Origin: Candidatus Gastranaerophilales bacterium
GTDB taxonomy: Bacteria; Cyanobacteriota; Vampirovibrionia; Gastranaerophilales; Gastranaerophilaceae
Length of the DNA: 64,000 bases
Reading direction: 5' to 3'
NCBI GenBank assembly: GCA_944324165.1
Contig: CALUVG010000001.1
Span: forward strand, 2,773 to 66,772
Each line of letters opens with the position of its first letter. Within the stretch, counting starts at the first letter, position 1. Position numbers and translations under genes: made by a program. Positions 19,230-47,043 of the stretch are shown one piece after another. Below the pieces are notes generated by a model. It was not told the DNA's origin. It did no database searches and worked only from the letters and a program-made list of their open reading frames with translations.

Positions 19230-20102
19230 TTATTTATCAGAACATTTATGCTTACCGTCCCAGCTCAGGTCATCACAATGAAGATAATCCATATTTTCAT
19301 TTTCTATAACCCATGCTGTACATCCATAGCCGTTAGTGACACGGTGACCTGTTTTTCTATTACAATATCGAGGGAATGGTACACCTGTATCATCTTTACT
19401 CCCCATAGGAATAACACTGCCGTCTTTAGAATAATAAAAGAGAAATACATCTTTGCCTTGTGTATTAGGTTCTTTAATGCCGTTAACATCCACAAATATT
19501 TGCCCGCAAATATTTTGAAGTAATTTACTATCTCCGTTTGATCCTGTACAATCTGCAGAGATTATAGTAGCCCCATAAATAACACTCCCATCAGCCAATA
19601 CTATTCGAGACCCCCAATGGCTATATTCCTGACCATCTAATGTGTATCGTTTTACAAATATACCGCAACCGGTTTCAACATCATCACAAACTTCTATTAC
19701 CTTTAAGTTTTCTCTGATTCGTTCCCTTATAAATTTAGCCATATTCCTGCGGGCATCAATTTCTTCTTGTGGGGTATCTTCAGGAAGCTCGCTCTCTCCG
19801 CTCAAAGACAGCCCCCACTGATTTATTTCACCGTGTTGAACAACCGATAATCGTAATGCATTATTAAGGACTGAATGCATCTTTTTTAATCTGGTTACAG
19901 TAACTCTTTCATTATGTTTTTGTATCAAAGAAGGTATTGTTATTGCAGCAACTATACCTATAATCGCGAGGGTGATTAGCACCTCCGCGAGAGTGAAGGC
20001 GGATTCGTGTTTAAAGACGTTAAGTCCTTTATATTTTTTAGGCTTTATTTCTACGTGATTAGTTACGTTGAGATTAATAATACTTTTTAAATCTTTTCTC
20101 AT
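19230..20102 (-). CDS. Type IV prepilin-like protein (cassette 1), long leader, Cys-rich globular domain
   Basis: FTLAEVLITLAIIGIVAAITIPSL preceded by a 35-aa leader ending in Ala. FVDVNGIKEPN motif. 11 Cys in the C-terminal domain. Confidence 0.8.
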   Translation of the reverse strand: MRKDLKSIINLNVTNHVEIKPKKYKGLNVFKHESAFTLAEVLITLAIIGIVAAITIPSLIQKHNERVTVTRLKKMHSVLNNALRLSVVQHGEINQWGLSLSGESELPEDTPQEEIDARRNMAKFIRERIRENLKVIEVCDDVETGCGIFVKRYTLDGQEYSHWGSRIVLADGSVIYGATIISADCTGSNGDSKLLQNICGQIFVDVNGIKEPNTQGKDVFLFYYSKDGSVIPMGSKDDTGVPFPRYCNRKTGHRVTNGYGCTAWVIENENMDYLHCDDLSWDGKHKCSDK

Positions 20103-20193
20103 TTGTTAGTTCCATCTTTATTCCCATTTGGATTATTTTAAACAAATATTGTTTATAATCTTTATTTTGTGTCTTATAAACAACATTAATTTT

Positions 20194-20222
20194 ACTATAT
20201 ACCATTGTTGACACTTTGTCAA
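20194..20222 (-). promoter_or_regulatory. Near-consensus sigma-70 promoter of pilin-like gene 1
   Basis: Minus strand reads TTGACA-aagtgtcaacaatggta-TATAGT (17-nt spacer). Confidence 0.55.
20208..20222. promoter_or_regulatory. Palindrome TTGACA-ctt-TGTCAA overlapping the -35 of the pilin-1 promoter
   Basis: Perfect 6-bp arms with a 3-nt spacer. One arm is the -35 of the minus-strand promoter. Confidence 0.45.
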
Positions 20223-20239
20223 TCATTTATTATTTAAAA

Positions 20240-20467
20240 ATGAACGATGAAGAATTTCTAAAAAAAATAGGACACAACATTAAAATTTTGCGTACACTCC
20301 GCGGTCTTTCGCAAGAAGATATTATGGGCGAATTAAATATAGACAGGGCTTATTACAGCAGGCTTGAATGCGGCAAGGCTAACTGTTCAATACTTTATCT
20401 TAGAAAAATCGCACAAGTTCTAAATGTTGATTTAGGAAAACTTTTGAATTTAAATATTGAGATCTAG
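20240..20467 (+). CDS. XRE/Cro-type HTH transcriptional regulator (cassette 1)
   Basis: IGHNIKILRTLRGLSQEDIMGELNIDRAYYSRLECGKANCSILYLRKIAQVL. ATG at 20240 has no SD, and TATTAT ends 7 nt upstream (possible leaderless mRNA). The ORF track starts at TTG 20216. Confidence 0.75.
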   Translation: MNDEEFLKKIGHNIKILRTLRGLSQEDIMGELNIDRAYYSRLECGKANCSILYLRKIAQVLNVDLGKLLNLNIEI

Positions 20468-21586
20468 CAGTTCTCTATGCAATTTGACATTGTGAACTCT
20501 TATATAATCAACTTTTCGTTCAACCGCCAGAGTATTCAATGCAACAGTAAATATATCTTTAGTTAAATTGTCTTTTTCTTGCATATTTAGTAAGCTTTTC
20601 CTTGACACTCCTAACATAACAGGGCAGCCCAGCCCGTACAACTCCTCAATTCTTCGAATAATTTCAAAATTGTCCTCTCTTGTTTTGCCAAATCCTATTC
20701 CGGGGTCAATAATTATATTTTCAACTTTAATGCCTTTTGAAACCGCAAAATCAATCCGTTTCTTCAAGTCAAGATAAATTTCGTCCATCAAGCTCTCATA
20801 ATGAGGAGAAATCTGCATATTTTCAGGTGTCCCTTTTGAATGTTGAATAATAACCTGAACGCCGCTTGATGCAATTATATCTGCCATATTCTTATCATAA
20901 TCAAGCCCTGAAACATCATTGATAATCTTAACGCCGTATTCTATACATTTTTTTGCGACAAGTGAACTGCGAGTATCAATGCTTATAGGGATATTTATAT
21001 TTTTATCTTTGATATAACTCAAAACAGGCAAAATTCTTTCCAATTGATTTTCTGCACTTACAGGCTCAGAAAACGGCTTTGTAGATTCGGCACCAATATC
21101 AATTATATCTGCACCGCCATCAACAAGCTGATGCAAATGTTCACAGGCTTTATCAGTATTAAAATACATCCCTCCGTCAGAAAAAGAATTCTCTGTAATA
21201 TTTAAAATTCCGACAATTTTTGTCCTTTCATGACGTTTTTCCTGCAAAAACTCTTTTAATTCTAGACCTAAACTTTTCAATTTAAACGGCTGGAATTGTA
21301 ATTTTTCTGCGATTTTGATTAATTGCGAAACACTCCCGCCAAGAATACAATCTGATTTGTCGATTTTACCCGTGATTGTTTCTTGATGTGTTGCACAATC
21401 TGCTCCAATAGAAAGTGCTGTTTGTTTCAATATGTTTGCCTGTGCAACTGACAACCCGTAAATTTTTATATTGCGATACTGAAATTTATCGCACGCCTTA
21501 TGCAAATAAGATTTATCAAACCCTATTTTTTCAAGTTCAATTTCCATATCAGTATTTACAATATTTTTCAAAATAAAATCGTGCAT
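20450..21586 (-). CDS. folP: Dihydropteroate synthase with ~110-aa N-terminal extra domain
   Basis: IVGILNITENSFSDGG, DIIDIGAESTKP, NDVSGL, DPGIGFGK, LGVSRKS. The 3' end overlaps the XRE gene by 18 nt (convergent). Confidence 0.9.
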   Translation of the reverse strand: MHDFILKNIVNTDMEIELEKIGFDKSYLHKACDKFQYRNIKIYGLSVAQANILKQTALSIGADCATHQETITGKIDKSDCILGGSVSQLIKIAEKLQFQPFKLKSLGLELKEFLQEKRHERTKIVGILNITENSFSDGGMYFNTDKACEHLHQLVDGGADIIDIGAESTKPFSEPVSAENQLERILPVLSYIKDKNINIPISIDTRSSLVAKKCIEYGVKIINDVSGLDYDKNMADIIASSGVQVIIQHSKGTPENMQISPHYESLMDEIYLDLKKRIDFAVSKGIKVENIIIDPGIGFGKTREDNFEIIRRIEELYGLGCPVMLGVSRKSLLNMQEKDNLTKDIFTVALNTLAVERKVDYIRVHNVKLHRELLDLNI

Positions 21587-21641
21587 ACATTAAATGTAGC
21601 ACGATTTGAGTATATAAACAAGTTAATTTTATGAACAGTTT

Positions 21642-22184
21642 TTAAGCGACACTTGAATAACTATCAGAATCCGGCATTGCAATTCTCATAAACTTATCAG
21701 ATCTGTCATTAACCCCGTTAACGACTTTTTTAGTCATGTTTCCGACGCCTGTTACAAATACGAAAAATGCAACGGCACCGCCTATAACTCCTGCAGTACG
21801 TTTATAAATGCCGCTTTCCAGAATTGGTTTTACAAAACGATTGGCTTTAACAGTGTGTCCCCAGTCGATTATAGCATCAGTAAAACGTTTTGCATTCTTT
21901 GATAATCCTGCCCACAAACCTTTTGCTTCCTGTCCTGTTTTTTGCGCAAACTGAATAGCTTCTTTAGTTTCTGCAGACATATTTCTCATTTTTTGAGTGT
22001 CAAATCCAAATTGTTTAAAAGTTTTCCAGGCACCTGTTCTTGATGCAGTTGCAGTAGCGGCAGAAGTACCGGTAACTGCCGCAACTTCAGAGGTTGTGAC
22101 TTTTTTCTGGTCATCATCCTTGCCGTTGCGTCCGGCATAAGCTATGTTGTTGTAATTAACTGCATCAACTTTCATTTTTTTCAC
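21642..22184 (-). CDS. Hypothetical small protein (K/G/A-rich, one Gly-zipper TM)
   Basis: AKGLWAGLSKNAKRF, NRFVKPIL, and TM segment AGVIGGAVAFFVFVTGVG. The track start is GTG 22184; an alternative ATG is at 22175. Confidence 0.55.
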   Translation of the reverse strand: MKKMKVDAVNYNNIAYAGRNGKDDDQKKVTTSEVAAVTGTSAATATASRTGAWKTFKQFGFDTQKMRNMSAETKEAIQFAQKTGQEAKGLWAGLSKNAKRFTDAIIDWGHTVKANRFVKPILESGIYKRTAGVIGGAVAFFVFVTGVGNMTKKVVNGVNDRSDKFMRIAMPDSDSYSSVA

Positions 22185-22202
22185 ACACCCTGTTTTGTTT
22201 GC

Positions 22203-23030
22203 TTAGGCTCTGTTATGTTCTGCCTGAATAGTTTCAACGCCTGCAGTAACACCGCCGCTTACTCCAAAGAAGTTAGCAATTGTTGCTTTTACTTTTTCGC
22301 CTGTAATCTTTGAACCTTTTTCTTTTATTGTGGAAACAACATTATTAACTTTTTCAAATGCATTATCAGCTAATTCAGCAACGCGTTTAAAAATATTACT
22401 ATTCTTAGCATTATCGGTTAAATCATTTAAGGTTTGACCGGCTTTTGTGCCTTTTAATTTTTCAGTAAGTGCTGATGCGGCACCGGATACTGTTTTAGAG
22501 ATTTTTTCTCCGAATTTACCTTTTTTGACAGCATCTGCGACTAAATCATAGCCTGCGGTAAACGGTTTAGCCATTTCTTTAGCAATTTTTTGAGCAACAG
22601 GACTTTTGACAATATTTTCACCGACTTTCATTGTTCCTATTGTTGCCCATTTCATTGAGACAAATCCCATTGCCACACTGATTGCGCCAAGAATTATTTT
22701 TCCGGCAGTTTTAATCGGCTTGCCGACTTTTGAATTGCCTACCATATCTTCAACATTGTTAAGTGTTTCTTCTACATTGCGTTTGGCATTATTCAAAAAA
22801 TCTTTTTGTTCATCGTATTTAGCTTTTTCATCAATAGGGTCAGAGGCATTTCTCATTGTAAAATCATTAACGACATCTGCATCTGAAATATCAACAACAT
22901 CACCAAATTCTGAATTGTTATGCAGTTCTGAATTTTTTGGCTGCTGATTTTGCGGATTTAAAACGATAATCCTTGGTTCTCTGTTACCGAATGATGCAGA
23001 ATTTTTGGAAATACCGGAAATGTTTAACAT
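22203..23030 (-). CDS. Hypothetical protein (disordered N-terminus, one TM, K/A/G-rich amphipathic C-terminal half)
   Basis: VGKPIKTAGKIILGAISVAMGFV, then long amphipathic K/A/G/E stretches and DNAKNSNIFKR. Confidence 0.6.
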   Translation of the reverse strand: MLNISGISKNSASFGNREPRIIVLNPQNQQPKNSELHNNSEFGDVVDISDADVVNDFTMRNASDPIDEKAKYDEQKDFLNNAKRNVEETLNNVEDMVGNSKVGKPIKTAGKIILGAISVAMGFVSMKWATIGTMKVGENIVKSPVAQKIAKEMAKPFTAGYDLVADAVKKGKFGEKISKTVSGAASALTEKLKGTKAGQTLNDLTDNAKNSNIFKRVAELADNAFEKVNNVVSTIKEKGSKITGEKVKATIANFFGVSGGVTAGVETIQAEHNRA

Positions 23031-23166
23031 ATTTTCACCACTACCTTCTAATACTGATTTGCATTAACTATAAGACCACTAAAAAATATTTATTGCTAGT
23101 TACACAAATAATATTAAGAAATATTTACAAAATACACTACCTTCATTTATATTATTTCACATGATA

Positions 23167-24114
23167 TCAATTTTGTAAAGATGTAATCTGATATTTTGCT
23201 CCTTGATATGAATTTCTCTTAATAAATTCGCGGTCTATTTTGTTAAGACAATCCAATTTTTTTCCTAGCCAGCGCGGGGCAATTAAATTTTTCTTTAGAC
23301 CGTTGCCTGCTAGACGGTGAACTGACGTTTCCGGAGGAAGATACTCCAAAAAATCACAAACAGTCTGCACGTAATCGTCTTCACCCATAAAATCAATTTC
23401 ACCATTATTATAAAGTGATGCAAGTCCGGTATTTTCCAGTGCACAAAGCATATGAATTTTAACCCCGTCGACTTTTAACTCGGCAAGTTTCTGAGCAGTC
23501 TGCATCATTTCATCGTGGGTTTCCCACAAGCCCAAAATCACATGCACACATACATTAATGCCTTTTTCTTTTGTTTTTTCATATGCACGTAAAAAACAAT
23601 CAAAATCATGCCCTCTGTTTATTTTTTTTAGCGTCCTGTCATGAATGGACTGCAGTCCGTACTCAATCCACGTATAATAATCATCTTTATATCCTGAAAT
23701 TAAAGATAGTTTATCCTCATCAACGCAGTCAGGTCTTGTTCCTATTGAAAGTCCTACTATCTTTTCATTATTCAAAGCCGAGTTATAAATTTTTTCAAGT
23801 TCGTCAACAGGCTTATAAGTATTACTGTAAGCCTGAAAATAGGACATAAATTTTTCAGCCTTAAAACGGGCAGAAAGAGTCTTAATCCCTTCCTCAACCT
23901 GTTGCTCTATACTCAAGAGATTTGAATGAGCCTGAGAAAAACTTCCCCCCTCATCACAAAAAACACATCCGCCATGAGAAATGGTACCGTCTCTGTTCGG
24001 ACAGGAAAATCCGGCATCCAGTGTGATTTTATAAACTTTAACTCCGAATTTATCCTTTAAGAGCCGGCTAAACTGATTATAGCGTTTATTATCTCCGTCA
24101 GCGCACATAACCAA
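23167..24114 (-). CDS. Radical SAM protein, TIGR01212/YhcC-like
   Basis: DAGFSCPNRDGTISHGGCVFCDEGG cluster, TIM-barrel-like remainder, length about 315 aa. Confidence 0.85.
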   Translation of the reverse strand: MVMCADGDNKRYNQFSRLLKDKFGVKVYKITLDAGFSCPNRDGTISHGGCVFCDEGGSFSQAHSNLLSIEQQVEEGIKTLSARFKAEKFMSYFQAYSNTYKPVDELEKIYNSALNNEKIVGLSIGTRPDCVDEDKLSLISGYKDDYYTWIEYGLQSIHDRTLKKINRGHDFDCFLRAYEKTKEKGINVCVHVILGLWETHDEMMQTAQKLAELKVDGVKIHMLCALENTGLASLYNNGEIDFMGEDDYVQTVCDFLEYLPPETSVHRLAGNGLKKNLIAPRWLGKKLDCLNKIDREFIKRNSYQGAKYQITSLQN

Positions 24115-24282
24115 TTAGGCATTTTCTTTTTCTTCAATTATCGGATAAACATAATGTTCGCCGCAATTAGGGCAAACAACTTCCTGTTGTTTACCTTCTT
24201 CAAGCTGTGCTACTTCAAAAAGAGTTCTACAGCCGGATTGCACACATCTGATTGCCCATGTTGGTCTTATTAATCTTGCCAT
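24115..24282 (-). CDS. Small zinc-ribbon protein (55 aa)
   Basis: GAGGGAAG SD upstream of the ATG at 24282. C-x4-C...CPNC. Its stop abuts the radical SAM ATG. Confidence 0.5.
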   Translation of the reverse strand: MARLIRPTWAIRCVQSGCRTLFEVAQLEEGKQQEVVCPNCGEHYVYPIIEEKENA

Positions 24283-24404
24283 TTTTCTTCCCTCACTTAT
24301 TTTTCTATACACAATTAATATACCACAAATTAACATACTGCACAAGTGGCGGTTTAAAGCTCTGCAAACTTGTATTTTAAATAATTTTTTGATATACTCA
24401 CAGT

Positions 24405-25853: not shown

Positions 25854-25868
25854 ATAGACGAGGCAATA

Positions 25869-27407: not shown

Positions 27408-27419
27408 CTTCTACCTCCC

Positions 27420-31201: not shown

Positions 31202-34200
31202 TTATGGCTTTTGTGCAGGTGAATCTTCATTATTCGGCTGAAGCTGATCTAAATCCTGAATGCTGCCTTCTGCAAAAGCATTTTCTCCGGATGCCCCCTC
31301 TGCTCCTTCAGTTCCCTCTGTGCCTTCTGAAGATTCTTCCATGTCTTCGGCTTCGTAATGTGCCGGATCAAGGTCAAATTCAATGTTGATGCCTTTCTTC
31401 TGAGCCATATTTACAGCCTGTTCAATACAAAGTTTGGCGCTGTCATATTGTTTCATAAACATAAGGACTTTAAACATGTTATATTTAAACAGCAGTGTAA
31501 GATACTCATTAGAATAATCGCTTCTTTCCAATTGTATAATAGAATTATTTACAATACCATAAGCAACATCATACTTTTTCATTCGTAAATTATATTCACT
31601 CAACAGATACCAGGCAAAGTATAATATATTTGTCATACCATTTTCACTCGTTTCATTAATTATCCTATAGAATATATTAACAGCTTTGGTATAAGATTCC
31701 ATATCCATGTAAGAAGACCCGATCAAAACATCACAGAACAATTCTATCTGATGTAAATTATGATCTTTTGCGTTTAATTTCGCAATATAAATTTCTTCTG
31801 CAAACTTAACCGGATCTGTGCGTAAATACATAAACGCTGACATTATATGATAAATAGTCATTGCAAAACGGTCATTTGGGGCTATCTCCATTTCCGGCAG
31901 CTCTGAAAGACGACCATGTAATAATTCTTCCAGAAGAATAAATATATTATATGATGCAGGTATTCCCTGCAAATCCGCGCCTATCATATCCAGAAATTCT
32001 TTTACGTTTCCGCTCAGATTCAAAACATTTGCAAGTGCTACAAATCCAACCGAACTTATTAGCATATCTCTAAATTGTTCCGGCGTATACTCCTGCGGAC
32101 GCAGCTTTTCCAGATTTGCCTCTTTAACAACACTCATTACTTTATATCCGACATCAAGACAATCTTTTAGAGCTCCTATATTGAATAAAATCTCTATATG
32201 TATAAATGACATCAGGAAGAAATAACTGTTAAAATTTGATGCATTAGGATCTAAAGATGTATTAGGCAGTAATGATAATACCTTATGCATCAACTCCAAT
32301 GCTTTATGATAATTTCCGACATCCAACGATCCCAGTATCATTTTATTACACAATTCGATAATCTTTCCTGTCTCCGCATCGGATCTTTCAAGATTATCCA
32401 GCGTAATTTGTGCAATATCAGAAGTTTTACTTGGAATATACTGATATAAGTTATTTGAAATTTTATCGTATAATTCCATTTTATAATTTTCTATATTTTC
32501 AAAATTATCTTCATTGATTTTTGTTTCCATCATATCAATAATTTTGTTAGCGCAATTCAAATATGCACTGAAATCGCCCATTGAAAGGTCAATATCAGCC
32601 AATTTTTCCCATTCTGCAAACTCTTTGTCATATTGTTCCAGAAGATTATATAAATAAGCCTTTGTAGGACTTGGCATTTCATCTATGAAAACTTTTTCAA
32701 ACAATTCTTGTGCAACTTCTTTTAACAATTCCGGTTTAACTGATTCCAGCAAATTTTGACATAATAAATTGTAGTTAGGGAAATAAATACAATTATTATA
32801 TTGGTATATATAGCCCATTGCGCCTAATTTATCTATAATTTCGCCAATATTTTCATAGCCGAGACTTTCAATTGTTGCAGTGTCAATCCGTGTACCTAAC
32901 AGCAGCAATGATGCCAGAAATTTCAATGTTGTCGGATCATCTTCCAATAGATTTAATCTACGTTTCAGCAGCTTTGGCAAACTGGATGGTATTATAATTG
33001 TTTTTGCTGTATCTAACTCTATACTGTCTTCTGTTGCTTTATAAACACCCGATTCCATCAAGTATTGAAGAGCAAAATCTAAAAACAGAATACTGCCGCA
33101 GGAATATTTTGCGATTCTGTGAAAATAAAAATCATTCAAAATGTTTTTGTAATACTCTTTATTTTCCTCAATCATCTTCTCAAATGGCGTAGGTTTTAAT
33201 GCCATTTCCGTATAATAAGGCTGTTCTAATAAGAAATAACAATCTCTGTGAAGTGAGAATGTACTTTCATAAGAAAGAAGATAACTAATATCAAGCTGGT
33301 CAAATGCAGCAAACAAATGCTTAAGTACATCATAAGAACTTGCATCTATCTTTTCAAAATTTTCAATAAATATCAAACTATTCGGGATAGCCTTCAATAG
33401 CGTCAGGAAAATATCAAAATATACATATCGTGTATCTTCGGCATTTGTTGTATTTCGTTTAGTTAATGTTATCAAGTCTTTAACCATTGAATCCGGATCA
33501 ACTGATGCAAACATTGAAAAATCATTTTGAGAGAATAATTTCTGCGAAACAGTGTAACTAAAAATTGCAGAAACAAGTTCTCTGAAGAATGAATACGGCG
33601 AATATTTCATTTCATCATAACACGTAACACTAATAATATTACTGTATAAATTTAAATCTTCAATTGTGTTAATAATTTTCAACGAATAAGGTTTATAAAG
33701 CTCCATTGTCTTTATTGCAAGTATTCCCTTAGGAACAGATTGCAAACGGTTAATAACATGATAAAAGACATCTATATTTTCTGTTCGAACAAAATCAGCC
33801 TGAATTTCGCTAAATTTTATTGTTTCAATATCATAAATTGCATCAGGGTCATATGGTGTATCCATTTTCCTTAATGCCATACCGTCAATTTTGTCCTGTT
33901 CTATAAGCATATTTTGAACAAAGTTTGGTATTTCAATCTTTTCATTTTCCTCATCAGGGATTTGCTCAACAGTAATCAAATCTTTCACGTTAACTTCGTA
34001 AAACATTTTCATTTCACCGTTAATCATAACCGAGTTCAGCGGGGCAAATTCATAATCTTTTGAAAGAATATCCTGAACCTCTGAATCGGAAAGAACTTGA
34101 AAAGCACTCAATACTTTTTCTTCAGCACCGCCTTTACCGTGAGACAACAGATTAATATTGAACCCGGAATCTATATTATACGGATCATCATCAACAGAAC

Positions 34201-34768
34201 GTTTTAAAAGAAACATATTACAACGAACTGTAGCATTTTTCTTTTTTGTAAGACGAGCATTTGTTTTAGATATCAAATTCAATATTTCAACAGCAGCAGT
34301 AATTGCATTATTTGCAGAGCTGCCAATTGTGTAATCCTTATCAAATCTTATTACATAAGTATTACCTACCAATTGACGTCTGAGTCCTACTGACTTTGCA
34401 TAGTCATAAATAATCTTATCAAGATTAATTTTGAACTTATTAACAAGTTTCGCTGACCCCAAAAGTGTACGCATATCAGCCATATTAGGAAAGTCAATGG
34501 TCAAAATGACAAAGTTATCAGTATTAGATTCATTAAGAATTACGCTTTTTTCAAGCGAAAAGCCGCAATTAGAACATTTTTTCTTTGCAGTTTGATTTAC
34601 TTTACCGCACTTATTACATTTAGTTACGATAACATACCCGCACTTTTTACAGGTACTACCCTCGTTTACAGCCTTACAAACAGGGCAAACGAGCTTAAGC
34701 ACCTTTTTACAATTCGGGCAAACTAACGCTTTATCATCTATTTCTAAACCGCATTTTGGACATTCCAT
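31202..34768 (-). CDS. Large multidomain protein: 3 zinc ribbons, class III nucleotidyl-cyclase-like domain, AAA_16/STAND-like region without P-loop, TPR-like helical repeats, acidic tail
   Basis: Six CxxC pairs in the first 70 aa. FVILTIDFPNMADMRTL and VGNTYVIRF resemble cyclase beta1/beta4. SLIFIENFEKIDASSYDVLKHLF resembles the AAA_16 Walker B region. No GxxxxGK[ST] seen. The C-terminal half is helical repeats. Confidence 0.8.
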   Translation of the reverse strand: MECPKCGLEIDDKALVCPNCKKVLKLVCPVCKAVNEGSTCKKCGYVIVTKCNKCGKVNQTAKKKCSNCGFSLEKSVILNESNTDNFVILTIDFPNMADMRTLLGSAKLVNKFKINLDKIIYDYAKSVGLRRQLVGNTYVIRFDKDYTIGSSANNAITAAVEILNLISKTNARLTKKKNATVRCNMFLLKRSVDDDPYNIDSGFNINLLSHGKGGAEEKVLSAFQVLSDSEVQDILSKDYEFAPLNSVMINGEMKMFYEVNVKDLITVEQIPDEENEKIEIPNFVQNMLIEQDKIDGMALRKMDTPYDPDAIYDIETIKFSEIQADFVRTENIDVFYHVINRLQSVPKGILAIKTMELYKPYSLKIINTIEDLNLYSNIISVTCYDEMKYSPYSFFRELVSAIFSYTVSQKLFSQNDFSMFASVDPDSMVKDLITLTKRNTTNAEDTRYVYFDIFLTLLKAIPNSLIFIENFEKIDASSYDVLKHLFAAFDQLDISYLLSYESTFSLHRDCYFLLEQPYYTEMALKPTPFEKMIEENKEYYKNILNDFYFHRIAKYSCGSILFLDFALQYLMESGVYKATEDSIELDTAKTIIIPSSLPKLLKRRLNLLEDDPTTLKFLASLLLLGTRIDTATIESLGYENIGEIIDKLGAMGYIYQYNNCIYFPNYNLLCQNLLESVKPELLKEVAQELFEKVFIDEMPSPTKAYLYNLLEQYDKEFAEWEKLADIDLSMGDFSAYLNCANKIIDMMETKINEDNFENIENYKMELYDKISNNLYQYIPSKTSDIAQITLDNLERSDAETGKIIELCNKMILGSLDVGNYHKALELMHKVLSLLPNTSLDPNASNFNSYFFLMSFIHIEILFNIGALKDCLDVGYKVMSVVKEANLEKLRPQEYTPEQFRDMLISSVGFVALANVLNLSGNVKEFLDMIGADLQGIPASYNIFILLEELLHGRLSELPEMEIAPNDRFAMTIYHIMSAFMYLRTDPVKFAEEIYIAKLNAKDHNLHQIELFCDVLIGSSYMDMESYTKAVNIFYRIINETSENGMTNILYFAWYLLSEYNLRMKKYDVAYGIVNNSIIQLERSDYSNEYLTLLFKYNMFKVLMFMKQYDSAKLCIEQAVNMAQKKGINIEFDLDPAHYEAEDMEESSEGTEGTEGAEGASGENAFAEGSIQDLDQLQPNNEDSPAQKP

Positions 34769-37289: not shown

Positions 37290-37946
37290 CTACAATTTAA
37301 CAGGATAATCATCGGGTATTTTCCAGCCGTTTAGTTCAATTATTTTAGTAAATGAGTTGGGATAGTTATATAAATCTTCTTTTGTACCATTCCAAGGGGA
37401 ATCAATATAAGGCACAATACCTTTATTATGGAAATACTCGTATCTTTTTGCCCAGATATCTGTTGTTTGAGGATAAAAGGCAAACATAAATGCATTTTTT
37501 CCCATTTCTGACTCTTGTCCGCAGTTTATATAATACACATAATCCTGTCCGGAATAGCCAATATGAAAACATGAACCATCTGCCAGATAAACTCTTAATC
37601 CGCCAAGAAGGTCACCATTATCATTTTCACCCAAATCTTCTCTGGGCACAAATTCTGCTTTATTATATTTAAAATACTTTTCTAAATATTTATCCCAAAA
37701 TCCTCTTATACAACTTTCTTCATACCCGGTTGAACATCCTGCCTCAAAATCCCAGCTTTCTTTTGGTCCGTTCTCTATTTCCGACAATTGTATTGCCTGA
37801 TTTGCCATAGAATAAAAACGTTTTAATTTTGTTTCTATTTCCGTTTTCTTATATTGATGCAAAAGATTAGGGATTGTTAAAACTGCAACAATACCAATTA
37901 TCGCAAGAGTAATAAGAACTTCTGCCAGTGTAAATCCATGTTTCAT
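37290..37946 (-). CDS. Type IV prepilin-like protein (cassette 2)
   Basis: MKHGFTLAEVLITLAIIGIVAVLTIPNL from the internal ATG at 37946, with a canonical short leader and Gly at -1. Confidence 0.85.
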   Translation of the reverse strand: MKHGFTLAEVLITLAIIGIVAVLTIPNLLHQYKKTEIETKLKRFYSMANQAIQLSEIENGPKESWDFEAGCSTGYEESCIRGFWDKYLEKYFKYNKAEFVPREDLGENDNGDLLGGLRVYLADGSCFHIGYSGQDYVYYINCGQESEMGKNAFMFAFYPQTTDIWAKRYEYFHNKGIVPYIDSPWNGTKEDLYNYPNSFTKIIELNGWKIPDDYPVKL

Positions 37947-37974: not shown

Positions 37975-37994
37975 ATGTATATTATAATATACAT
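37975..37994. promoter_or_regulatory. Perfect 20-bp palindrome covering the -10 of the pilin-2 promoter
   Basis: ATGTATATTA|TAATATACAT. Confidence 0.5.
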
Positions 37995-38009
37995 TTTATA
38001 ATATGTCAA
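37981..38009 (-). promoter_or_regulatory. Consensus sigma-70 promoter of pilin-like gene 2
   Basis: Minus strand reads TTGACA-tattataaaatgtatat-TATAAT (17-nt spacer). Confidence 0.6.
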
Positions 38010-38015
38010 TATTAT
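37998..38015. promoter_or_regulatory. Inverted repeat ATAATAT-gtca-ATATTAT centred on the -35 of the pilin-2 promoter
   Basis: 7-bp perfect arms. The centre GTCA is part of TGTCAA (38004..38009). Confidence 0.4.
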
Positions 38016-38037
38016 TTATACGATATTAAAATATTAT

Positions 38038-38043
38038 TACAAT
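38038..38043 (+). promoter_or_regulatory. Candidate -10 box (TACAAT) for a leaderless XRE-2 transcript
   Basis: TACAAT ends 7 nt before the A of the ATG at 38050. No SD lies between them. Confidence 0.35.
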
Positions 38044-38049: not shown

Positions 38050-38271
38050 ATGGATCAAAAAGAATTACTGATAAATTTTGGTATAAAACTGAAATACTGG
38101 CGGTTAAAACGTAATTTAACTCAGGAAGAACTTGCTGAAAAACTCCTTGTGGCTCCGCATTATATCAGCGATATAGAGCGCGGCAGAAGAAATATTACAA
38201 TGCAGACAATAGGCAGACTTGCGGAGGCATTGAATATTGAAGTTGTTCGGCTTTTTAATTTTTCGGATTAG
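38050..38271 (+). CDS. XRE/Cro-type HTH transcriptional regulator (cassette 2)
   Basis: FGIKLKYWRLKRNLTQEELAEKLLVAPHYISDIERGRRNITMQTIGRLAEAL. Confidence 0.8.
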   Translation: MDQKELLINFGIKLKYWRLKRNLTQEELAEKLLVAPHYISDIERGRRNITMQTIGRLAEALNIEVVRLFNFSD

Positions 38272-39504: not shown

Positions 39505-40734
39505 ATGAATGAAAATTATTGGGAAAGGTTTGATACCAGGCTGACCTGGCTTACAACACAACGCACTGCATTACAAAAAAATGGGACGCAGGCATATTAT
39601 GCTCCGCTTGTTTATGAATTGCCGCAACAGGAATCTATATTTACATCCAATCCTTTTGCGCAGCCCACAATTCCTCCAGGAGGAAATGTAGGGAAGTCGA
39701 AAACTGTAAATATACAGCAGTTTCGGCGTTACAATATAAACACAGGACATCAAGTTCTTAAATTCCAAAAAGCAGAAACAATGCAGGAGGCGGTGAATTA
39801 TGCCCGAACAAAACTCGGTATAAAGAATTTTAACATGCAAAATGATCTTGAACTTGCAAACTGGGTAAATGAAGGACTGACGGCAATATATAACAAATAC
39901 AAAGGCAAGGTACCAATGCCATCTAATGTAATAAAAGACGGCAGCAAGGATATGATTGGAGATGCATATTATAACTTAAATCGAGATACTCTTGCTATTG
40001 CTCCGGACAACAAAAAGAAAGTCTTAACAAGACTCCTTCGTAACATCGAAAATACCTGGGAAAGCAGCAACCGCCCGCTTACTCGCTGGTATAAAAGAGC
40101 ACTAAAAGAAGATTATTCTCAAATACCATACATTGATCCGAAATTCCAAAAGCAGGTTGCTCAACATATTCAGGAATTTCAACATTTTCCGGAGATTTTT
40201 GAGGTTACAGATGTCAAACAGCTCTATCACGAAATAAATGCACTGCTGGAGACAAAACATATCTTAAAAACAAATCCTATGAAGTTAATAGCAGATCTAT
40301 ACAATAATCCAAAATACAAGAAAGCATTAGAAAGTCCTGAATTTAAATCTCTTGTACAAATATCCCGTTTGGACAAAGACGAACAAAAACAGGAATTTTA
40401 TAAAATACTGGATAAACTAAAAGAAAAAGGAATAAATGCTTATGTCGAGCCTCAAAAATTTGCAGAAAATAACAAATTTCATGTAATTTTCCACGAATAC
40501 GGGCATTTTATGCATTTTAAGACCACTTCGTTTGAATCCTTAAAAGAGCATACAGATGAATTTAAATCAAATCCCCGCAAACAAAATACAGCAGAACAGG
40601 TTTCAGGTTACGCGAAAAGTGAACCTATGGAGTTTGTAGCAGAGGTCTATGCAGGAATGCTGAACGGTGAAAAATATTCACCTGAGGTAATGCGGCTTTA
40701 TCGCAGCTACAACGGACCGACGGTTCCACAGTAA
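39505..40734 (+). CDS. Hypothetical gluzincin-like metallopeptidase (HEYGH ... EFVAE)
   Basis: VIFHEYGHFMHF, plus EPMEFVAEVYAGML about 40 aa downstream. No signal peptide. Large N-terminal region of unknown fold. Confidence 0.7.
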   Translation: MNENYWERFDTRLTWLTTQRTALQKNGTQAYYAPLVYELPQQESIFTSNPFAQPTIPPGGNVGKSKTVNIQQFRRYNINTGHQVLKFQKAETMQEAVNYARTKLGIKNFNMQNDLELANWVNEGLTAIYNKYKGKVPMPSNVIKDGSKDMIGDAYYNLNRDTLAIAPDNKKKVLTRLLRNIENTWESSNRPLTRWYKRALKEDYSQIPYIDPKFQKQVAQHIQEFQHFPEIFEVTDVKQLYHEINALLETKHILKTNPMKLIADLYNNPKYKKALESPEFKSLVQISRLDKDEQKQEFYKILDKLKEKGINAYVEPQKFAENNKFHVIFHEYGHFMHFKTTSFESLKEHTDEFKSNPRKQNTAEQVSGYAKSEPMEFVAEVYAGMLNGEKYSPEVMRLYRSYNGPTVPQ

Positions 40735-40735
40735 T

Positions 40736-40768
40736 AAAAAAGGAGCGTTGAAAAACGCTCCTTTCCAG
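40736..40768. terminator. Bidirectional intrinsic terminator (strong for metK)
   Basis: AAAAA-AGGAGCG-ttgaaaaa-CGCTCCT-TTCC. On the minus strand the stem is followed by TTTTTTATT. Confidence 0.75.
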
Positions 40769-40786
40769 TTTTAGTTTAAATAAAAA

Positions 40787-42067: not shown

Positions 42068-42355
42068 TTCCAATTTCTCCTTAATTTATTTTTGTACCGA
42101 CCGGTAAGTTTTTTAATTCCAACCCGGTCACATCATTAACCGACATCATAAATCAAAGAATATTTAAAAGCAAATTATGTATTAATAAATATTAATTATT
42201 TTTAATTATTTTTTTCTTCCGGATTTAAACAGTTCTATAAAAGTATTAATTTTCTGTACTCACGTGACAAAATATTAATTAATCATTAATTTTACTGACT
42301 TTTTTAAAATAAGCCTTAAAATAAAAATAAAGAATATAATAAATGGAGTTGTACT

Positions 42356-44965
42356 ATGGTAGATTTTAACAAATTGACTAATTATTCTCAGGAAATTCTG
42401 TCTTCAGCAAGTGCGATTATGAGTTCGCACAAGAATACGGAACTGCAGCCGGAACACATTATGCTTGCAATGATTAAAGATAACGGCATAATTAAGGACT
42501 ACCTGACAGAACTTAAACTTCTCAATCAGGGATTTATCGACAAAATAGTTACAGCAGTCAATTCTTTTCCTACTGTTTCATCCCCGCCAAACACAAGTCA
42601 ACTGTTTCTTTCAAGCCAGACATACAAGCTGCTTGATATTGCAGAAGAACTTGCAGGCGATATGAAAGATGAATTTATTGGTATTGAATTGATTTTACTT
42701 GCAATGACCAAACTTGACAATTCTAATATTCAAAAACTTTTGAAAGATTTTAGAGTTGAAAGTTCAAATGTACTTAACGCAATGAAAAAAATAAGAGGTA
42801 ATAAAAAAGTGGATAATAAAAATGCTGAAGAAAATATGAAAGCACTTGAAAAATATTCAACCGATCTAACGGCTTTAGCAAGAAAAGGCAAACTTGATCC
42901 TGTAATCGGTCGTGATGAAGAAGTCAGAAGAATAATTCAGGTACTTAACAGAAGAACAAAAAACAACCCTGTTCTGATTGGTGAACCCGGAGTTGGTAAA
43001 ACTGCAATAGTTGAAGGTCTGGCACAACGTATCGTAAGAGGCGATGTACCGATGAGCCTTAAGGATGTTAAACTTATTTCTCTGGATTTGGGCGCACTGG
43101 TTGCAGGGGCTAAGTTCCGCGGAGAATTTGAAGAACGATTGAAAGCCGTATTGAAAGAAGTTGAAGACTCCAACGGCGAGATTGTAATGTTTATTGATGA
43201 ATTACATACGGTTGTTGGCGCAGGAGCAACTGAAGGCTCAATGGATGCAGGCAACCTTTTAAAACCAATGCTTGCACGCGGTATTCTGCGAACAATAGGG
43301 GCAACTACAATCAATGAATATAGAAAATACATAGAAAAAGATCCGGCACTTGAGCGTCGTTTCCAGCCTGTAATGGTTGATGAGCCAAGTGTTGAGGATA
43401 CAATCAGCATTCTCAGAGGGCTGAAAGACAAATACGAAGTTCACCACGGAGTAAGAATTCTTGATGATGCACTAATAGAAGCCGCAAAATTATCTGACAG
43501 ATATATTACAGACAGATTTTTGCCGGATAAAGCGATTGATTTGATTGATGAAGCCGCATCTTCTTTGCGTATCCAGATAGATTCCATGCCGGAAGAAATA
43601 GATTCAATGCTGCGTCAGAAAATTCAACTTGAAATTGAACGTGAAGCCCTGAAAAAAGAAGATAGTGATGAGGCTAAAGCTAAAGTTGCAGATATAACCA
43701 AACAAATTGATGAACTTGAAGCTAAAACTTCAAAACTAAAAGCCCAGTGGGAAAGCGAAAAAGCAACAATTACCGGTGAAGCCGGCTTGAAAGAGCAAAT
43801 TGAAGATGTAAAACGTAAAATAGAAGAGGCTGAACGCAACACAGATTTGCAAACCGCTGCGGAACTTAAATACGGCAAATTGCTTGAATTGGAAAAACAA
43901 TTAAAAGCAATACAAAACAAAGAAAAAGTATCTAATCAACTTTTAAAAGAAGAGATAGATGCGGAAGATATTGCAAATGTAGTAAGCAAGTGGACAGGTA
44001 TTCCCGTAAACAAACTTGTTGAAAGCGAAATGCAAAAACTATTACATATGGAAGACATTTTGCATAAACGTTTGATAGGTCAGGATGAGGCTGTGGCAAC
44101 GGTTTCAGATGCAATACGCCGTGCGCGTTCCGGCTTGAAAGACCCGAAACGCCCTATTGGAACATTCCTGTTCTTAGGTCCGACCGGTGTTGGTAAAACA
44201 GAGTTAGCCAAGGCGCTTGCAGAATTTATGTTTAACGATGAAGATGCGCTTATCCGTATTGATATGTCAGAATATATGGAAAAACACAATGTTGCAAGAC
44301 TTGTTGGAGCGCCTCCGGGATATGTCGGCTATGAAGAAGGCGGTCAATTAACCGAGGCTGTCAGAAGAAAACCTTATTCTGTTGTGCTTTTTGATGAAAT
44401 TGAAAAAGCTCATCCGGATGTATTCAACATAATGCTGCAAATCTTTGATGACGGACGTTTGACTGATTCAAAAGGCAGAACAATCGACTTCAAAAACACT
44501 CTTATCATAATGACAAGTAACATTGGCAGCGATATTATTCTTGAAAACACGCTTAATTCAATGTTGTCACAGAGTGATTTTGAAGAGACAAAAAATAAAG
44601 TTCTTGAAGTTTTAAGAAGTCGTTTCAAACCGGAATTCTTAAACAGAATTGATGAGATTATATTCTTCAAAGCCTTGAATTTACAGCAGTTATCTGCAAT
44701 TGTAGATATTCAGATGGATTACTTGAGAAAATTGCTTGCTGATCAGGAAATACTGTTCAGAATAACTGATGAGGCAAAGGAATTTCTTGCTACACGCGGA
44801 TTTAATCCTGTTTATGGTGCAAGACCTTTGAAAAGAGTAATTCGTCAAATGGTAGAAAATCCGTTATCTAAATTACTGCTTGAACAGAAATTTCGCCGCG
44901 GTGATGAAGTGGTAATTGATGTAAATAATGACGAGATTACATTCAGGAAAGATGAAACCAAATAA
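42356..44965 (+). CDS. clpB: Chaperone/disaggregase ClpB
   Basis: Clp N domain, NBD1 [15 protein letters not shown], long coiled-coil M domain, NBD2 [22 protein letters not shown]. Confidence 0.95.
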
Positions 44966-44980
44966 TAATGATACCTGATA

Positions 44981-45014
44981 GAGGCGGCAATGAAAAAATT
45001 TTCATTGCCGCCTC
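44981..45014. terminator. Long perfect hairpin between convergent clpB and pyrF (no clear U-tract)
   Basis: GAGGCGGCAATGAAAA-aa-TTTTCATTGCCGCCTC (16-nt arms). Confidence 0.5.
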
Positions 45015-45019
45015 TAAAA

Positions 45020-45775
45020 TTACATATTTTCGTTCAATTCTTCCATAGCCGATTCAATTTCATCAATAATCAATCTTGCGGCGGCGATTCTATCTTCTGC
45101 CATGGTTATAGGTCTGCCGACTACCATGTAATCCACTCCGGCAAGAATTGCGTCACGCGGTGTATCAACTCTAACCTGATCGTTTACAGATGCCCAGGTA
45201 GGGCGTGTAGCAGGACAGAGTATTATAAAGTCTTCTCTAACGCATTTTCTTATCTTTTTAGCCTCTTCTGCGCTCGCTACAACCCCGTCTAATCCGTTTT
45301 CTTCTGCGACTTTTGCAAGCTGCAGGACATATGATTCAATATTTTTATCAACACATAATTCTTCAGTCAGAGTTCTCTGTCCAAAGCTTGAAAGCAAAGT
45401 TACTCCAAGTATTGTAGGAGGTTCGCATCCAATGGATTTTGCAGCAGCGCGAGATGCTTTAACAACAGAGGCAACCATTTTTGAGCCGCCTTGAATATGT
45501 ACGTTAAAGAAGTTAATTCTGTTTTTAACAAGGCTTATTGCTGCTTTTTGAACAGTATGCGGAATGTCATGGAATTTGCAGTCGAAATAGCATTTTGCAC
45601 CGAGTTCCTCAAGTAGTCTGAACGCCTCAAATCCGTAATTAACAATTAATGGTAACCCTATTTTGAAATAACCTACGTAATCTTTAAGCTCTCTAACTAA
45701 TTCTCTAGCCTCTTTAAGGTTGTCAACATCTAAGGCAAGAATAATTCTATCTTTAGCACATTCGGGTTTAATCAT
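45020..45775 (-). CDS. pyrF: Orotidine 5'-phosphate decarboxylase
   Basis: Internal ATG at 45775 with AGGAGAGAGG SD. RIILALDV, DCKFHDIPHTV, VVGRPI. Confidence 0.9.
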   Translation of the reverse strand: MIKPECAKDRIILALDVDNLKEARELVRELKDYVGYFKIGLPLIVNYGFEAFRLLEELGAKCYFDCKFHDIPHTVQKAAISLVKNRINFFNVHIQGGSKMVASVVKASRAAAKSIGCEPPTILGVTLLSSFGQRTLTEELCVDKNIESYVLQLAKVAEENGLDGVVASAEEAKKIRKCVREDFIILCPATRPTWASVNDQVRVDTPRDAILAGVDYMVVGRPITMAEDRIAAARLIIDEIESAMEELNENM

Positions 45776-45897
45776 CGCCTCTCTCCTAACAATACTATAT
45801 AAATACCACAAGCAGAAAAGAAAATCAAGAAAAAAAGTGCCGTCAGCTATTGACGGCACAGTAATCGTTTTGGTTTCACATCTGTGTAAACTTGTTG

Positions 45898-46599
45898 TTA
45901 TGAGCCAGTACCATCGCTAGGATTTGTTTCTGTACCTTGTTCATTGTTTTCAGACCCATATAATACTGCACGAGCAGCTGGTGAGTTTGGTGCTACAGTT
46001 TGATCATAGAATTTGATCGGGAAAATATCATTGATAGTAACTTTACTTGTACAATCTCCATCAGAGTTAGTACATTCAACGAGTTTATTCGGTCCCTTAG
46101 TACCATTTGTATCAATAAATCCTTTGCAAGGATCTGCTTCTGTACAACTAGCACCACTATTTGGGAAAGTAAAGACTATACCGTCTTGGAAACGAAATAC
46201 ATAGTTAGAATTAATTGCGTTTTCATCTCCACCATCTGCATCTTCACTAGTTCCAAACGTTAAAGCATCAGCATAATTTGTTAATTCATCACCTTCGATC
46301 AACGTACCGTTAGTTCTTTCAGTGAACATTCTGTACAATGAAGGAGTGTTCTCATTTTTATCTGTATTTGCAGACGTACCCGCCAGGTCATAATCATCAA
46401 GAGCGATGTTCATGACAACAGCCTGAGAAAGGACTGATAAAGCTTTTTTATATGCGGTTTTGAATTGCGCGCCATTTGTGTTGTTAATCAAAGTTGGCAT
46501 TGTCATAGCCGCAACTACCCCGATAATCGCCAAAGTAATCAAAACTTCAGCAAGTGTGAATGCATTGTTCATTGCATTGTTTTTTGTAATTAGTCTCAT
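45898..46599 (-). CDS. Type IV prepilin-like protein (cassette 3)
   Basis: GGAGG SD. ...NNAFTLAEVLITLAIIGVVAAMTMPTL. GFIDTNGTKGPN motif. 4 Cys. Low-complexity C-terminal tail. Confidence 0.85.
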   Translation of the reverse strand: MRLITKNNAMNNAFTLAEVLITLAIIGVVAAMTMPTLINNTNGAQFKTAYKKALSVLSQAVVMNIALDDYDLAGTSANTDKNENTPSLYRMFTERTNGTLIEGDELTNYADALTFGTSEDADGGDENAINSNYVFRFQDGIVFTFPNSGASCTEADPCKGFIDTNGTKGPNKLVECTNSDGDCTSKVTINDIFPIKFYDQTVAPNSPAARAVLYGSENNEQGTETNPSDGTGS

Positions 46600-46628
46600 G
46601 TTTACCTCCGATTTTCTATTACATAATC

Positions 46629-46657
46629 AGTATATCATATCAATATCAATTTGTCAA
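46629..46657 (-). promoter_or_regulatory. Near-consensus sigma-70 promoter of pilin-like gene 3
   Basis: Minus strand reads TTGACA-aattgatattgatatga-TATACT (17-nt spacer). Confidence 0.6.
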
Positions 46658-46668
46658 GATTATTGATA
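46644..46668. promoter_or_regulatory. Inverted repeat TATCAAT-N11-ATTGATA bracketing the -35 of the pilin-3 promoter
   Basis: 7-bp perfect arms. The 11-nt centre contains TGTCAA (46652..46657). Confidence 0.4.
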
Positions 46669-46725
46669 CAAATATCATTTATTAAGTGTAAAATCACGTA
46701 TATACTTATTAAAAAGGGGACTGTA

Positions 46726-47043
46726 TTGGATAAGAATTTTGTAGGTAAACAACTTAAACAAATACGTATTCAAAGGGGGATCTCGCAGGAGAAATTATCA
46801 GAACTGGTGGACATTTCGCCCCGTCAGATGTGTGTCATAGAAAATGGTAATTCTATACCTTCACTTGATACATTTATCAAGATTGCGAAAAATTTACATT
46901 TCGACATAAATGAGTTTTTCGGAATTGAATATGAGCCTACAGAAAATATTAGAAATGAGATTATCGAAAAGATTAAAACAGTCGACAGAAAACAACTTAA
47001 CCTGCTAAATGATATAGTTGATGCAGTTGCCCGAAACGCCTGA
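46726..47043 (+). CDS. XRE/Cro-type HTH transcriptional regulator (cassette 3), with ~40-aa C-terminal extension
   Basis: TTG at 46726 preceded by AAGGGGA SD. The only in-frame ATG lies inside the HTH. VGKQLKQIRIQRGISQEKLSELVDISPRQMCVIENGNSIPSLDTFIKIAKNL. Confidence 0.7.
   Translation: MDKNFVGKQLKQIRIQRGISQEKLSELVDISPRQMCVIENGNSIPSLDTFIKIAKNLHFDINEFFGIEYEPTENIRNEIIEKIKTVDRKQLNLLNDIVDAVARNA

Follow-up and report, generated by a model that had tools for sequence, protein, structure and literature searches.

A 64,000-nucleotide stretch of contig CALUVG010000001.1 from a Candidatus Gastranaerophilales bacterium (positions 2,773 to 66,772; hereafter the window), part of a 284-kb metagenome scaffold, carries three genes for type IV prepilin-like proteins. 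Each of them faces a divergent gene for a small XRE-type helix-turn-helix (HTH) regulator. This pairing of a prepilin gene with an XRE gene is a clade-wide, strongly non-random module and not a product of chance. Judged from sequence comparison, each pair is probably a self-contained transcriptional control unit in which a private repressor–operator switch governs a single type IV pilin-like protein. The module has apparently not been described before: we found no paper describing XRE–pilin pairs, in agreement with a preliminary description of this DNA, which did not recognise the pairing as a described system.

The six genes are listed below by position in the window (aa, amino acids; a slash marks the prepilin cleavage site; the products of the prepilin-like genes are called pilins 1 to 3).

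19230-20102, minus strand: prepilin-like gene 1, 290 aa; 35-aa leader, then A/FTLAEVLITLAIIGIVAA; N_methyl 26.7 bits, TIGR02532, DUF6613 22.7 bits.
20240-20467, plus strand: XRE1, 75 aa, HTH domain only; HTH_3 9e-11.
37290-37946, minus strand: prepilin-like gene 2, 218 aa; MKHG/FTLAEV...; DUF6613 2e-16 and N_methyl.
38050-38271, plus strand: XRE2, 73 aa; HTH_3 8e-17; PADLOC control protein 6.5e-15; YibE_F gene 30 bp downstream, co-directional.
45898-46599, minus strand: prepilin-like gene 3, 233 aa; ...NNA/FTLAEV...; N_methyl 26 bits; PHROG pilin 5e-8; no DUF6613 match.
46726-47043, plus strand: XRE3, 105 aa; TTG start at 46726 after AAGGGG; HTH and a C-terminal helical extension; HTH_19 7.5e-14.

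The coordinates and strands of all six genes were verified, and the three divergent pairs reported in the preliminary description were recovered. A six-frame motif scan found exactly three prepilin motifs in the whole 64 kb. In the annotation of the source contig and its sister strains, the three XRE genes were the only HTH_3 genes of the window. The three prepilin and three XRE genes thus formed three divergent pairs with no leftovers. Random placement of three plus three genes among ~58 genes would give three adjacent pairs with a probability of ~2.6e-4, and this chance falls to ~4e-6 when divergent orientation is added. The same annotation bore out the housekeeping flanks described earlier: GTP cyclohydrolase and a pterin-binding protein around cassette 1, RuvB and YibE_F around cassette 2, and orotidine 5'-monophosphate decarboxylase and LptC around cassette 3. 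It listed no PilB, PilC, PilD, PilQ, Gsp or Com assembly genes in the window, as had also been claimed. XRE1 and the convergent pterin-binding (folate pathway) gene (20450-21586) overlap at their 3' ends by 18 bp (20450-20467).

The family assignments held for both partners. All three pilins scored 26-27 bits against Pfam N_methyl (cut-off 21.2) and passed TIGR02532. Their cleavage motifs were HESA/FTLAE (pilin 1), MKHG/FTLAE (pilin 2) and MNNA/FTLAE (pilin 3), with A or G at -1, F at +1 and E at +5, followed by LITLAIIG(I/V)VA. XRE1, XRE2 and XRE3 scored 42.0, 61.5 and 43.5 bits against HTH_3 (cut-off 23), and XRE3 scored 51.8 bits against HTH_19. The window XREs shared only 27-29% identity with each other, which agrees with their reported divergence. 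Each belongs to its own orthogroup, so the three pairs are not three copies of one cassette, as they had been called.

To place the pairs in the clade, prepilin genes (by motif) and XRE genes (by an iterated profile) were collected from 80 loci of a species-representative genome scan and from the window. Nearly all of these loci were labelled Gastranaerophilales or Melainabacteria, with a few obviously wrong bin names; related loci are cited below by L numbers. A divergent XRE gene was the upstream neighbor of 41 of the 102 prepilin genes with a callable upstream neighbor, whereas among the 1038 other genes only 9 had one (odds ratio 77, p 3e-38). In the same set, 41 of 54 XREs faced a pilin gene. 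This was the enrichment check fixed beforehand for prepilin–XRE adjacency, and searches from the XRE side agreed with it. All seven close metagenome relatives of XRE1 faced a prepilin gene, while eight distant matches (at most 43% identity) did not. All five XRE3 loci that were looked up (L112-L116) faced a prepilin gene; only the L115 copy carried a frameshift, those of L112-L114 and L116 being intact. For XRE2, a prepilin partner was present in five of seven resolvable orthologues. Among pilins met only in the flanks of the loci, which had not been selected for, 6 of 43 were paired with an XRE. Pilin-like genes occurred roughly once per 21-27 kb, and for about half of them a private small regulator and an operator-like site could be recognised. 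Coincidental adjacency, in an AT-rich genome densely packed with genes and rich in small HTH proteins, could draw on nothing beyond the small sample of a single window; against the window probability (~4e-6), the clade-wide odds ratio and its reproduction from the XRE side, we regard its probability as negligible.

The intergenic regions contained the following promoters and candidate operators (nt, nucleotides; promoter scores are matches to the 12 consensus positions).

20194-20222, minus strand: pilin 1 promoter, TTGACA (20222-20217), 17 nt, TATAGT (20199-20194); 11/12.
20136-20183, no strand: candidate XRE1 operator, inverted TGTTTATAA half-sites at 20150-20158 (plus) and 20174-20182 (minus); partial third half-site (TTTAAAC) at ~20138-20144.
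20205-20233, plus strand: putative XRE1 promoter, TTGTTG, 17 nt, TATTAT, 6 nt to ATG; read from the sequence, not scored by the promoter scanner.
37981-38009, minus strand: pilin 2 promoter, TTGACA (38009-38004), 17 nt, TATAAT (37986-37981); 12/12.
37976-37993, no strand: candidate XRE2 operator, TGTATA-N6-TATACA enclosing the pilin -10; part of a perfect 20-bp palindrome.
38015-38043, plus strand: putative XRE2 promoter, TTTATA, 17 nt, TACAAT, 6 nt to ATG (probably leaderless); 9/12.
46629-46657, minus strand: pilin 3 promoter, TTGACA (46657-46652), 17 nt, TG-TATACT (46634-46629); 11/12, extended -10.
46632-46677, no strand: candidate XRE3 operator region, ATATCA at 46632-46637, ATCAAT at 46639-46644 and 46645-46650, ATTGAT at 46662-46667, ATATCA at 46672-46677.
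46651-46678, plus strand: putative XRE3 promoter, TTGTCA, 16 nt, TATCAT; 10/12.

Near-consensus sigma-70 promoters (11-12 of 12 matches, 17-nt spacer) were found upstream of all three pilin genes, as the preliminary description had stated. They are also a feature of the family. Promoters with at least 11 of 12 matches preceded 38% of paired and 31% of unpaired pilins in the clade, compared with ~5% of other genes. The geometry of the pilin 1 promoter recurs in cassettes of the XRE1 group (L031, L070, L091-L097), and the -35 of the pilin 2 promoter was kept in 9 of 10 orthologous cassettes, being TTGATA in L107. The two promoters of each cassette lie close together. Those of cassette 1 interleave, and the -35 of each falls in the spacer of the other. 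In cassette 2 they are back to back, with the XRE2 promoter 5 bp from the pilin -35. In cassette 3 the two -35 hexamers share 5 of 6 bp.

Each orthogroup had its own repeats at the pilin promoter. In the XRE1 group (window, L031, L070, L091-L097; 47-100% identical), TTGACA-17-TATAxT was present in every cassette and was followed by GTTTATAA-type repeats at or just past the -10. The nine cassettes other than that of the window shared these repeats, with pilin bodies ranging from ~80-90% (L031, L092, L093) down to ~20% identical. L031 contained the palindrome TTTGTTTATAAACAAA; L070, L095 and L097 contained two or three direct repeat copies, 21 bp apart; and in L096 both copies were altered in concert to AGTTTATAT. 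In the XRE2 group (L087, L089, L106-L111; 73-99%), TTGACA-N10-TGTATA-N6-TATACA was invariant and the other bases varied; the -10 sits inside the palindrome. In the XRE3 group (L112-L116; 65-67%), TGATAT-N4-ATCAAT-N4-TTGACA-N-ATTGAT was conserved in L112 and L114; L115 and L116 kept TGATAT and TTGACA-N-ATTGAT with a variant left arm.

Within the window, each motif was restricted to its own cassette. The candidate XRE1 operator, which would fall in the first ~50 nt of the pilin transcript, was the only place with two close-together TGTTTATAA copies. TGTATA-N6-TATACA occurred once (0.00 expected). The ATCAAT-N-ATTGAT pattern was also unique; the candidate XRE3 region is centred on the shared -35, and ATCAAT-N11-ATTGAT spans it. 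The idea of a private regulator for each pilin was thus upheld to the extent that there are three distinct operator-like repeats, each conserved in its own orthogroup and unique in the window. These orthogroup-specific repeats, comparative in nature, are the best available evidence for private regulator–operator pairs. The preliminary description had placed the repeats at the -35. Such repeats do exist at the -35, but only that of cassette 3 is conserved: the -35-centred repeat of cassette 1 was absent from its XRE1-group relatives, and that of cassette 2 was not kept in the XRE2 group. The likely operators are therefore located after the -10 in cassette 1, over the -10 in cassette 2 and over the -35 in cassette 3. 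Because the pilin promoters are near consensus and the repeats overlap the core promoter or the first part of the transcript, the XREs more likely repress than activate.

The XRE proteins themselves resemble a known class of regulator. The best PADLOC match of XRE1 was the restriction–modification (R-M) control protein PDLC03665 (7.5e-13, full length). This profile covered XRE1 and XRE2 over ~64 of its 77 positions and matched XRE3 more weakly (7e-7); the PADLOC library has no curated cut-off. All 91 relatives of XRE3 were annotated as XRE. The short XREs (69-76 aa) had no Shine–Dalgarno sequence and carried a -10-like hexamer 5-7 nt before the ATG, suggesting that their mRNAs are probably leaderless. 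For XRE1, the geometry of a -10, 6 nt and an ATG was also seen in L031, L048, L057, L047 and others. The ~105-aa XREs had a ribosome-binding site. Automatic picking of XRE promoters was noisy in this AT-rich DNA, and of its output nothing was retained but the leaderless arrangement of the short genes.

This resemblance raises the question of whether the XRE acts as a dual controller like an R-M C protein, activating at a low level and repressing its own promoter, the pilin promoter or both at a high level, with delayed or pulsed pilin expression as the result instead of plain repression. The full-length match of the short XREs to R-M control-protein models, their apparently leaderless mRNAs (as in C.PvuII) and the two or three repeat copies of several cassettes, which would allow concentration-dependent occupancy, are all consistent with such a mode. 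However, near-consensus pilin promoters should need no activator, and the conserved repeats lie on the -10, +1 or -35, which are not typical activator positions. In addition, no restriction endonuclease or methyltransferase genes flanked the three XREs in the annotation of the contig and its sister strains, indicating that the XREs are not functional members of an R-M controller system. We consider a dual controller unlikely.

A toxin–antitoxin (TA), abortive-infection or other defence module, with the pilin-like protein as effector and the XRE as antitoxin or sensor, is very improbable. The XREs did match the antitoxin models HipB, HigA and PezA, but all of these matches were below the family cut-offs. 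Genuine HigB/HigA-type modules do occur near cassettes in related strains. The pilins had no match in the PADLOC defence library, and the genes are divergent rather than arranged as a co-directional operon. The partner is a secreted-type protein of 190-350 aa with a class III signal peptide, belonging to a large, rapidly evolving family in a clade where assembly machinery is present.

The two halves of the pair do not evolve together. XRE similarity and pilin-head similarity were uncorrelated (Mantel r -0.05), and simple co-diversification of XRE and pilin was rejected by this mirror-tree analysis. The result points to swapping of the cargo. The XRE of L091 was 87-89% identical to those of the L031 group, and its pilin body was only ~20% identical to theirs. 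That body was closest (34%) to pilin 1 of the window, whose XRE is only 52% identical to that of L091; the surrounding genes differ. The site between RuvB and the XRE2–YibE_F genes showed the same exchange at a fixed position. It was occupied by a DUF6613 pilin (218 aa) in the window, L087 and L089, by an unrelated 352-aa prepilin, alike only over the first 53 residues, in L108 and L109, and by no pilin in L106 and L107. XRE2 (84-86% identical) and its operator persisted throughout these variants. The XRE, operator and promoter are therefore the stable unit, and the pilin body is exchangeable cargo that can be lost. The claim that the pair is a unit needs to be adjusted accordingly: the pairs are real, but what is conserved is the XRE with its promoter and operator, beside which the pilin is replaced or lost.

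Where the pilin was retained, it changed rapidly. Between L087 and L089, the nonsynonymous divergence (dN) of the pilin was 0.096 and its ratio to synonymous divergence (dN/dS) 0.36, compared with a dN of at most 0.011 and a dN/dS of at most 0.08 for the neighbors. The pilin thus evolves 10-100 times faster than its neighbors. Protein identities to the window in this block were 99% for RuvB, 96% for the aminotransferase, 93-94% for the XRE, 90% for YibE_F and 75-77% for the pilin. In the orthologues of pilin 3 (L112, L114, L116), the ends were conserved and the centre was variable. The orthologue in L115 (L115:1695-2437) was split into frames of 65 and 180 aa by a frameshift or an assembly error, with the XRE and operator intact.

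Such sites also bear on a different explanation, in which the XRE mainly autoregulates itself and its downstream genes (e.g., XRE2 and YibE_F), and prepilin genes tend to settle beside, or capture, strong divergent promoters of this kind; the pairing would then reflect preferred insertion or recombination sites and not dedicated regulation. The XRE2–YibE_F linkage was kept in all seven loci with the YibE_F context (L087, L089, L106-L109 and the window), with L110 and L111 as the only exceptions, and in most contexts it includes a downstream 409-aa protein. The survival of XRE2 with its promoter and operator at the pilin-less sites, the swapping of cargo at fixed sites and the presence of similar XREs in different genomic contexts fit this explanation as well. 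Several findings do not. No downstream partner is conserved for XRE1 or XRE3, and still both always face a pilin. It is the pilin promoter, rather than that of the XRE, which carries the conserved repeats. A pilin is faced by 41 of 54 XREs, and unrelated regulator families take the same pilin-side position. Autoregulation as the main role is thus quite unlikely.

The downstream 409-aa protein (39505-40734) had no Pfam match. It was 68% identical to its orthologue (dN 0.23), compared with 90-99% for its neighbors; it is fast-evolving and possibly surface-exposed. TA modules (Gp49/HigB with HI1420/HigA; HicB-like) and GIY-YIG fragments were found beside cassettes in sister strains and not in the window (L005:308-929, L087 and L089:583-1225, L115:2945-3316); in L005 the insertion lies between XRE3 and LptC. 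Cassette borders seem to be insertion-prone.

XREs were not the only regulators in the pilin-side position. A second small family (68-87 aa) was the divergent neighbor of 11 XRE-less pilins, and 11 of its 13 members faced a pilin. Its consensus is ...TLTKLA...YT...LS.KL....E...I.DILGY.I, and members include L007:9640-9870, L014:2063-2269, L015:9658-9870, L021:536-772, L050:9643-9879 and L082:936-1163, among others. It showed sub-threshold matches to HTH_26 and DUF6471, aligned in register with the XRE profile by hhalign at 21% probability, and matched nothing in the PDB. It is probably an uncharacterised HTH regulator. One pilin had a MerR regulator (4e-20) as its divergent neighbor, and three faced a small protein that looked AbrB/MazE-like by eye, an unverified label with no Pfam support. 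Altogether, 56 of 102 pilins had a small divergent putative regulator of some kind (41 XRE and 15 other). The earlier naming of XREs as the partner holds for 41 pilins, but the second small family, MerR and possibly an AbrB-like protein occupy the same position elsewhere. The presence of non-homologous proteins at the same position suggests that the arrangement itself is under selection.

The pilins are related mainly through their N-terminal helix. Pairwise identity among the three window pilins was ~30%, almost wholly in the first 55 residues, so the dissimilarity of their heads noted before is real, but they are still distant relatives. With a gathering threshold of 24.3 bits for DUF6613 (PF20318), pilin 2 scored 60.9 bits, pilin 1 scored 22.7 bits and pilin 3 had no match; pilin 1 was nevertheless listed as DUF6613 in the precomputed annotation of the collection. 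The D.NG.K.PN motif was present again in relatives. We found no paper describing DUF6613 or expansions of pilin-like proteins in Melainabacteria. Pilin 2 had relatives in more than 2000 clusters (2161). An exact look-up of its 218-aa form gave no record, as the database form has 234 aa from an upstream start; the start at 37946, preceded by the GAAAGG ribosome-binding site, is most likely the correct one. The AlphaFold2 model of pilin 2 (predicted local distance difference test score 93.9) consisted of an N-terminal helix (residues 7-59) and an alpha/beta head with five strands. In a Foldseek search of the PDB, its best E-value was 0.044 with a TM-score of ~0.16 and no pilin was listed, a weak negative for a full-length model with a long helix. 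PDB pilins (Geopilin, PilA, PpdD, GspG) matched the N-terminal segment only.

Assembly machinery was found elsewhere in the clade. In L050:3669-8838, consecutive genes encode a secretin, a T2SSE ATPase whose N-terminus is an MshEN domain, and a T2SSF platform protein; a pilin-like gene lies 1.2 kb away. L057:16531-18540 was also noted for this feature. A Gastranaerophilus genome with pilA, pilB, pilC, pilT and pilD has been reported (PMC5877343). The window also contains a GGDEF gene (14379-15749). Together with MshEN, a domain of the cyclic di-GMP-binding type, it hints at cyclic di-GMP control of pilus assembly.

Two further features were observed in pilin leaders. One or two extra partial AFTLAEVF... 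copies preceded the real motif in long leaders at L039:~9875-10010, L019:7532-8500 and L075:~9833 and in proteins P0003, P0004, P0006 and P0021; L039 contains a tandem AFTLAEVFHPVEMSKKI repeat. These decoy prepilin motifs were present in 2 of 116 locus genes and 10 of 120 homologues (~2-8% of the family), and some were conserved. They could be recombination scars or part of a functional long leader. A GC-rich repeat was located between the pilin promoter and the prepilin motif at L033:~9803-10100, L035:~9358, L066:~1579, L106:2011-2385 and L110:2-268. When translated, this repeat reads much like PSPLAGEGE or PLGEGGRRPDEG, and CCCTCGCCCC/GGGGAGAGGG segments within it form stems. The spot of the missing pilin in L106 and L107 is filled by this repeat. 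Elsewhere in the window, a 1188-aa protein (31202-34768), conserved in sister strains, had only weak zinc-ribbon (DZR) matches, and an Rfam scan of the window gave zero matches.

Taken as a private switch, each unit would work as follows. The near-consensus sigma-70 promoter would drive strong expression of a monocistronic prepilin gene, and the divergent small XRE would bind its cassette-specific repeat and turn this promoter off. The XRE has a weaker putative promoter of its own, interleaved or back to back with the pilin promoter, so that the shared sites would also set the XRE level. The promoter geometry (interleaved, overlapping or 5 bp apart) suggests mutual exclusion of RNA polymerase: a polymerase at one promoter would block the other, which may turn each unit into a switch with two states. 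Maturation and assembly of the pilins would fall to one prepilin peptidase and one type IV pilus or type II secretion-like machine, with genes at other loci. With a fast-evolving, replaceable body behind the conserved N-terminal helix, a genome could thereby hold many independently switchable surface-fibre variants.

Several observations weigh against a private repressor switch for each pilin. An XRE partner was found for only 14-41% of pilins, and small regulators of any kind for only a third to a half. Generic inverted-repeat strength was not higher upstream of XRE-paired than of unpaired pilins; inverted-repeat z-scores of XRE-paired pilin upstream regions did exceed those of other divergent intergenic regions (p 0.012), a difference that is not diagnostic. 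Shared intergenic 8-mers rose only weakly with XRE similarity (Mantel r 0.11, ~p 0.07; 367/5000), a comparison that is little informative because AT-rich words dominate. The intergenic region between XRE2 and pilin 2 was 77-84% identical among orthologues, no better than intergenic regions nearby, and overall identity is thus uninformative as a footprint. XRE2 is tied to YibE_F and is kept with its promoter and operator where the pilin is lost (L106, L107), and may therefore act on a different target or on itself alone. The short XREs lack a sensor domain for a signal that would relieve repression. For the head of pilin 2 the PDB offered no matching fold, which makes its place in a pilus fibre presumptive.

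The units share features with several known systems. C proteins (C.PvuII, C.AhdI, C.Esp1396I) are HTH-only XREs of ~75-80 aa with palindromic operators, and the C.PvuII mRNA is leaderless. As here, they combine an HTH-only XRE with a compact operator/promoter region that also governs its own gene, with one regulator per cargo and in varied contexts. The cargo here is a prepilin rather than a nuclease or methylase, and the genes are divergent rather than a co-directional C-R operon. The operators are unrelated to the GACT...AGTC C-boxes, and each genome contains many such units. TetR/tetA and lambda CI/Cro at PRM/PR likewise have back-to-back or interleaved promoters and shared operators, which permit autoregulation and mutual exclusion. 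However, TetR has a ligand-binding domain and Cro is an antagonistic second regulator; neither has a counterpart here, where the target is a structural surface protein. In the E. coli pap system, PapI/PapB provide a private small regulator per fibre gene, divergently encoded over a short control region, with several units per genome and presumed individual switching. They are not XREs, and their fibres are chaperone–usher fimbriae and not type IV pilins; pap switching needs Dam methylation and Lrp, whereas no sign of methylation sites or invertible DNA was seen here. By analogy, PapI/PapB-type regulators and divergent repressor–target pairs appear to be the nearest known functional counterparts.

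On the side of the cargo, Neisseria pilE/pilS also has a conserved 5' helix segment followed by a hypervariable body that is replaced at a fixed site, and pilin dN is elevated here. In contrast, replacement here was seen only between species or strains and not as a programmed process within a cell, and there are no silent promoterless copies, every copy having its own promoter and regulator. The PilA1-6 pilins of Haloferax volcanii, the minor pilins of Synechocystis and the DUF1559 proteins of Planctomycetes are likewise encoded by scattered genes, with a shared N-terminal helix, diverse heads and presumably one machine. The DUF6613 head differs from them in having no solved structural relative. 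To our knowledge, none of these sets has been described with a dedicated divergent small repressor for each gene.

Gastranaerophilales, a sister lineage of Cyanobacteria, are widespread uncultured gut relatives of cyanobacteria whose cell surface is almost unstudied. The units offer a concrete model of how they could vary pili or pilus-associated adhesins, perhaps under phage, host or substrate pressure. They give the DUF6613 family a context, and they suggest that controller-type XREs, best known from R-M systems, have been recruited to a different cargo. They would also supply many small natural repressor–operator pairs, apparently orthogonal, that could be used in E. coli without culturing the host. 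A more far-reaching possibility, which we put forward tentatively, is that the clade holds dozens of mutually orthogonal platforms, each made up of a C-protein-like XRE or other small regulator, a private operator and two interleaved divergent promoters and each an epigenetic two-state switch for one pilin-like cargo, so that single cells would show different combinations and new bodies would be slotted in by recombination in the helix-coding region. If true, these platforms would parallel antigenic variation at the level of transcription, and their orthogonal repressor–operator pairs would form a natural library.

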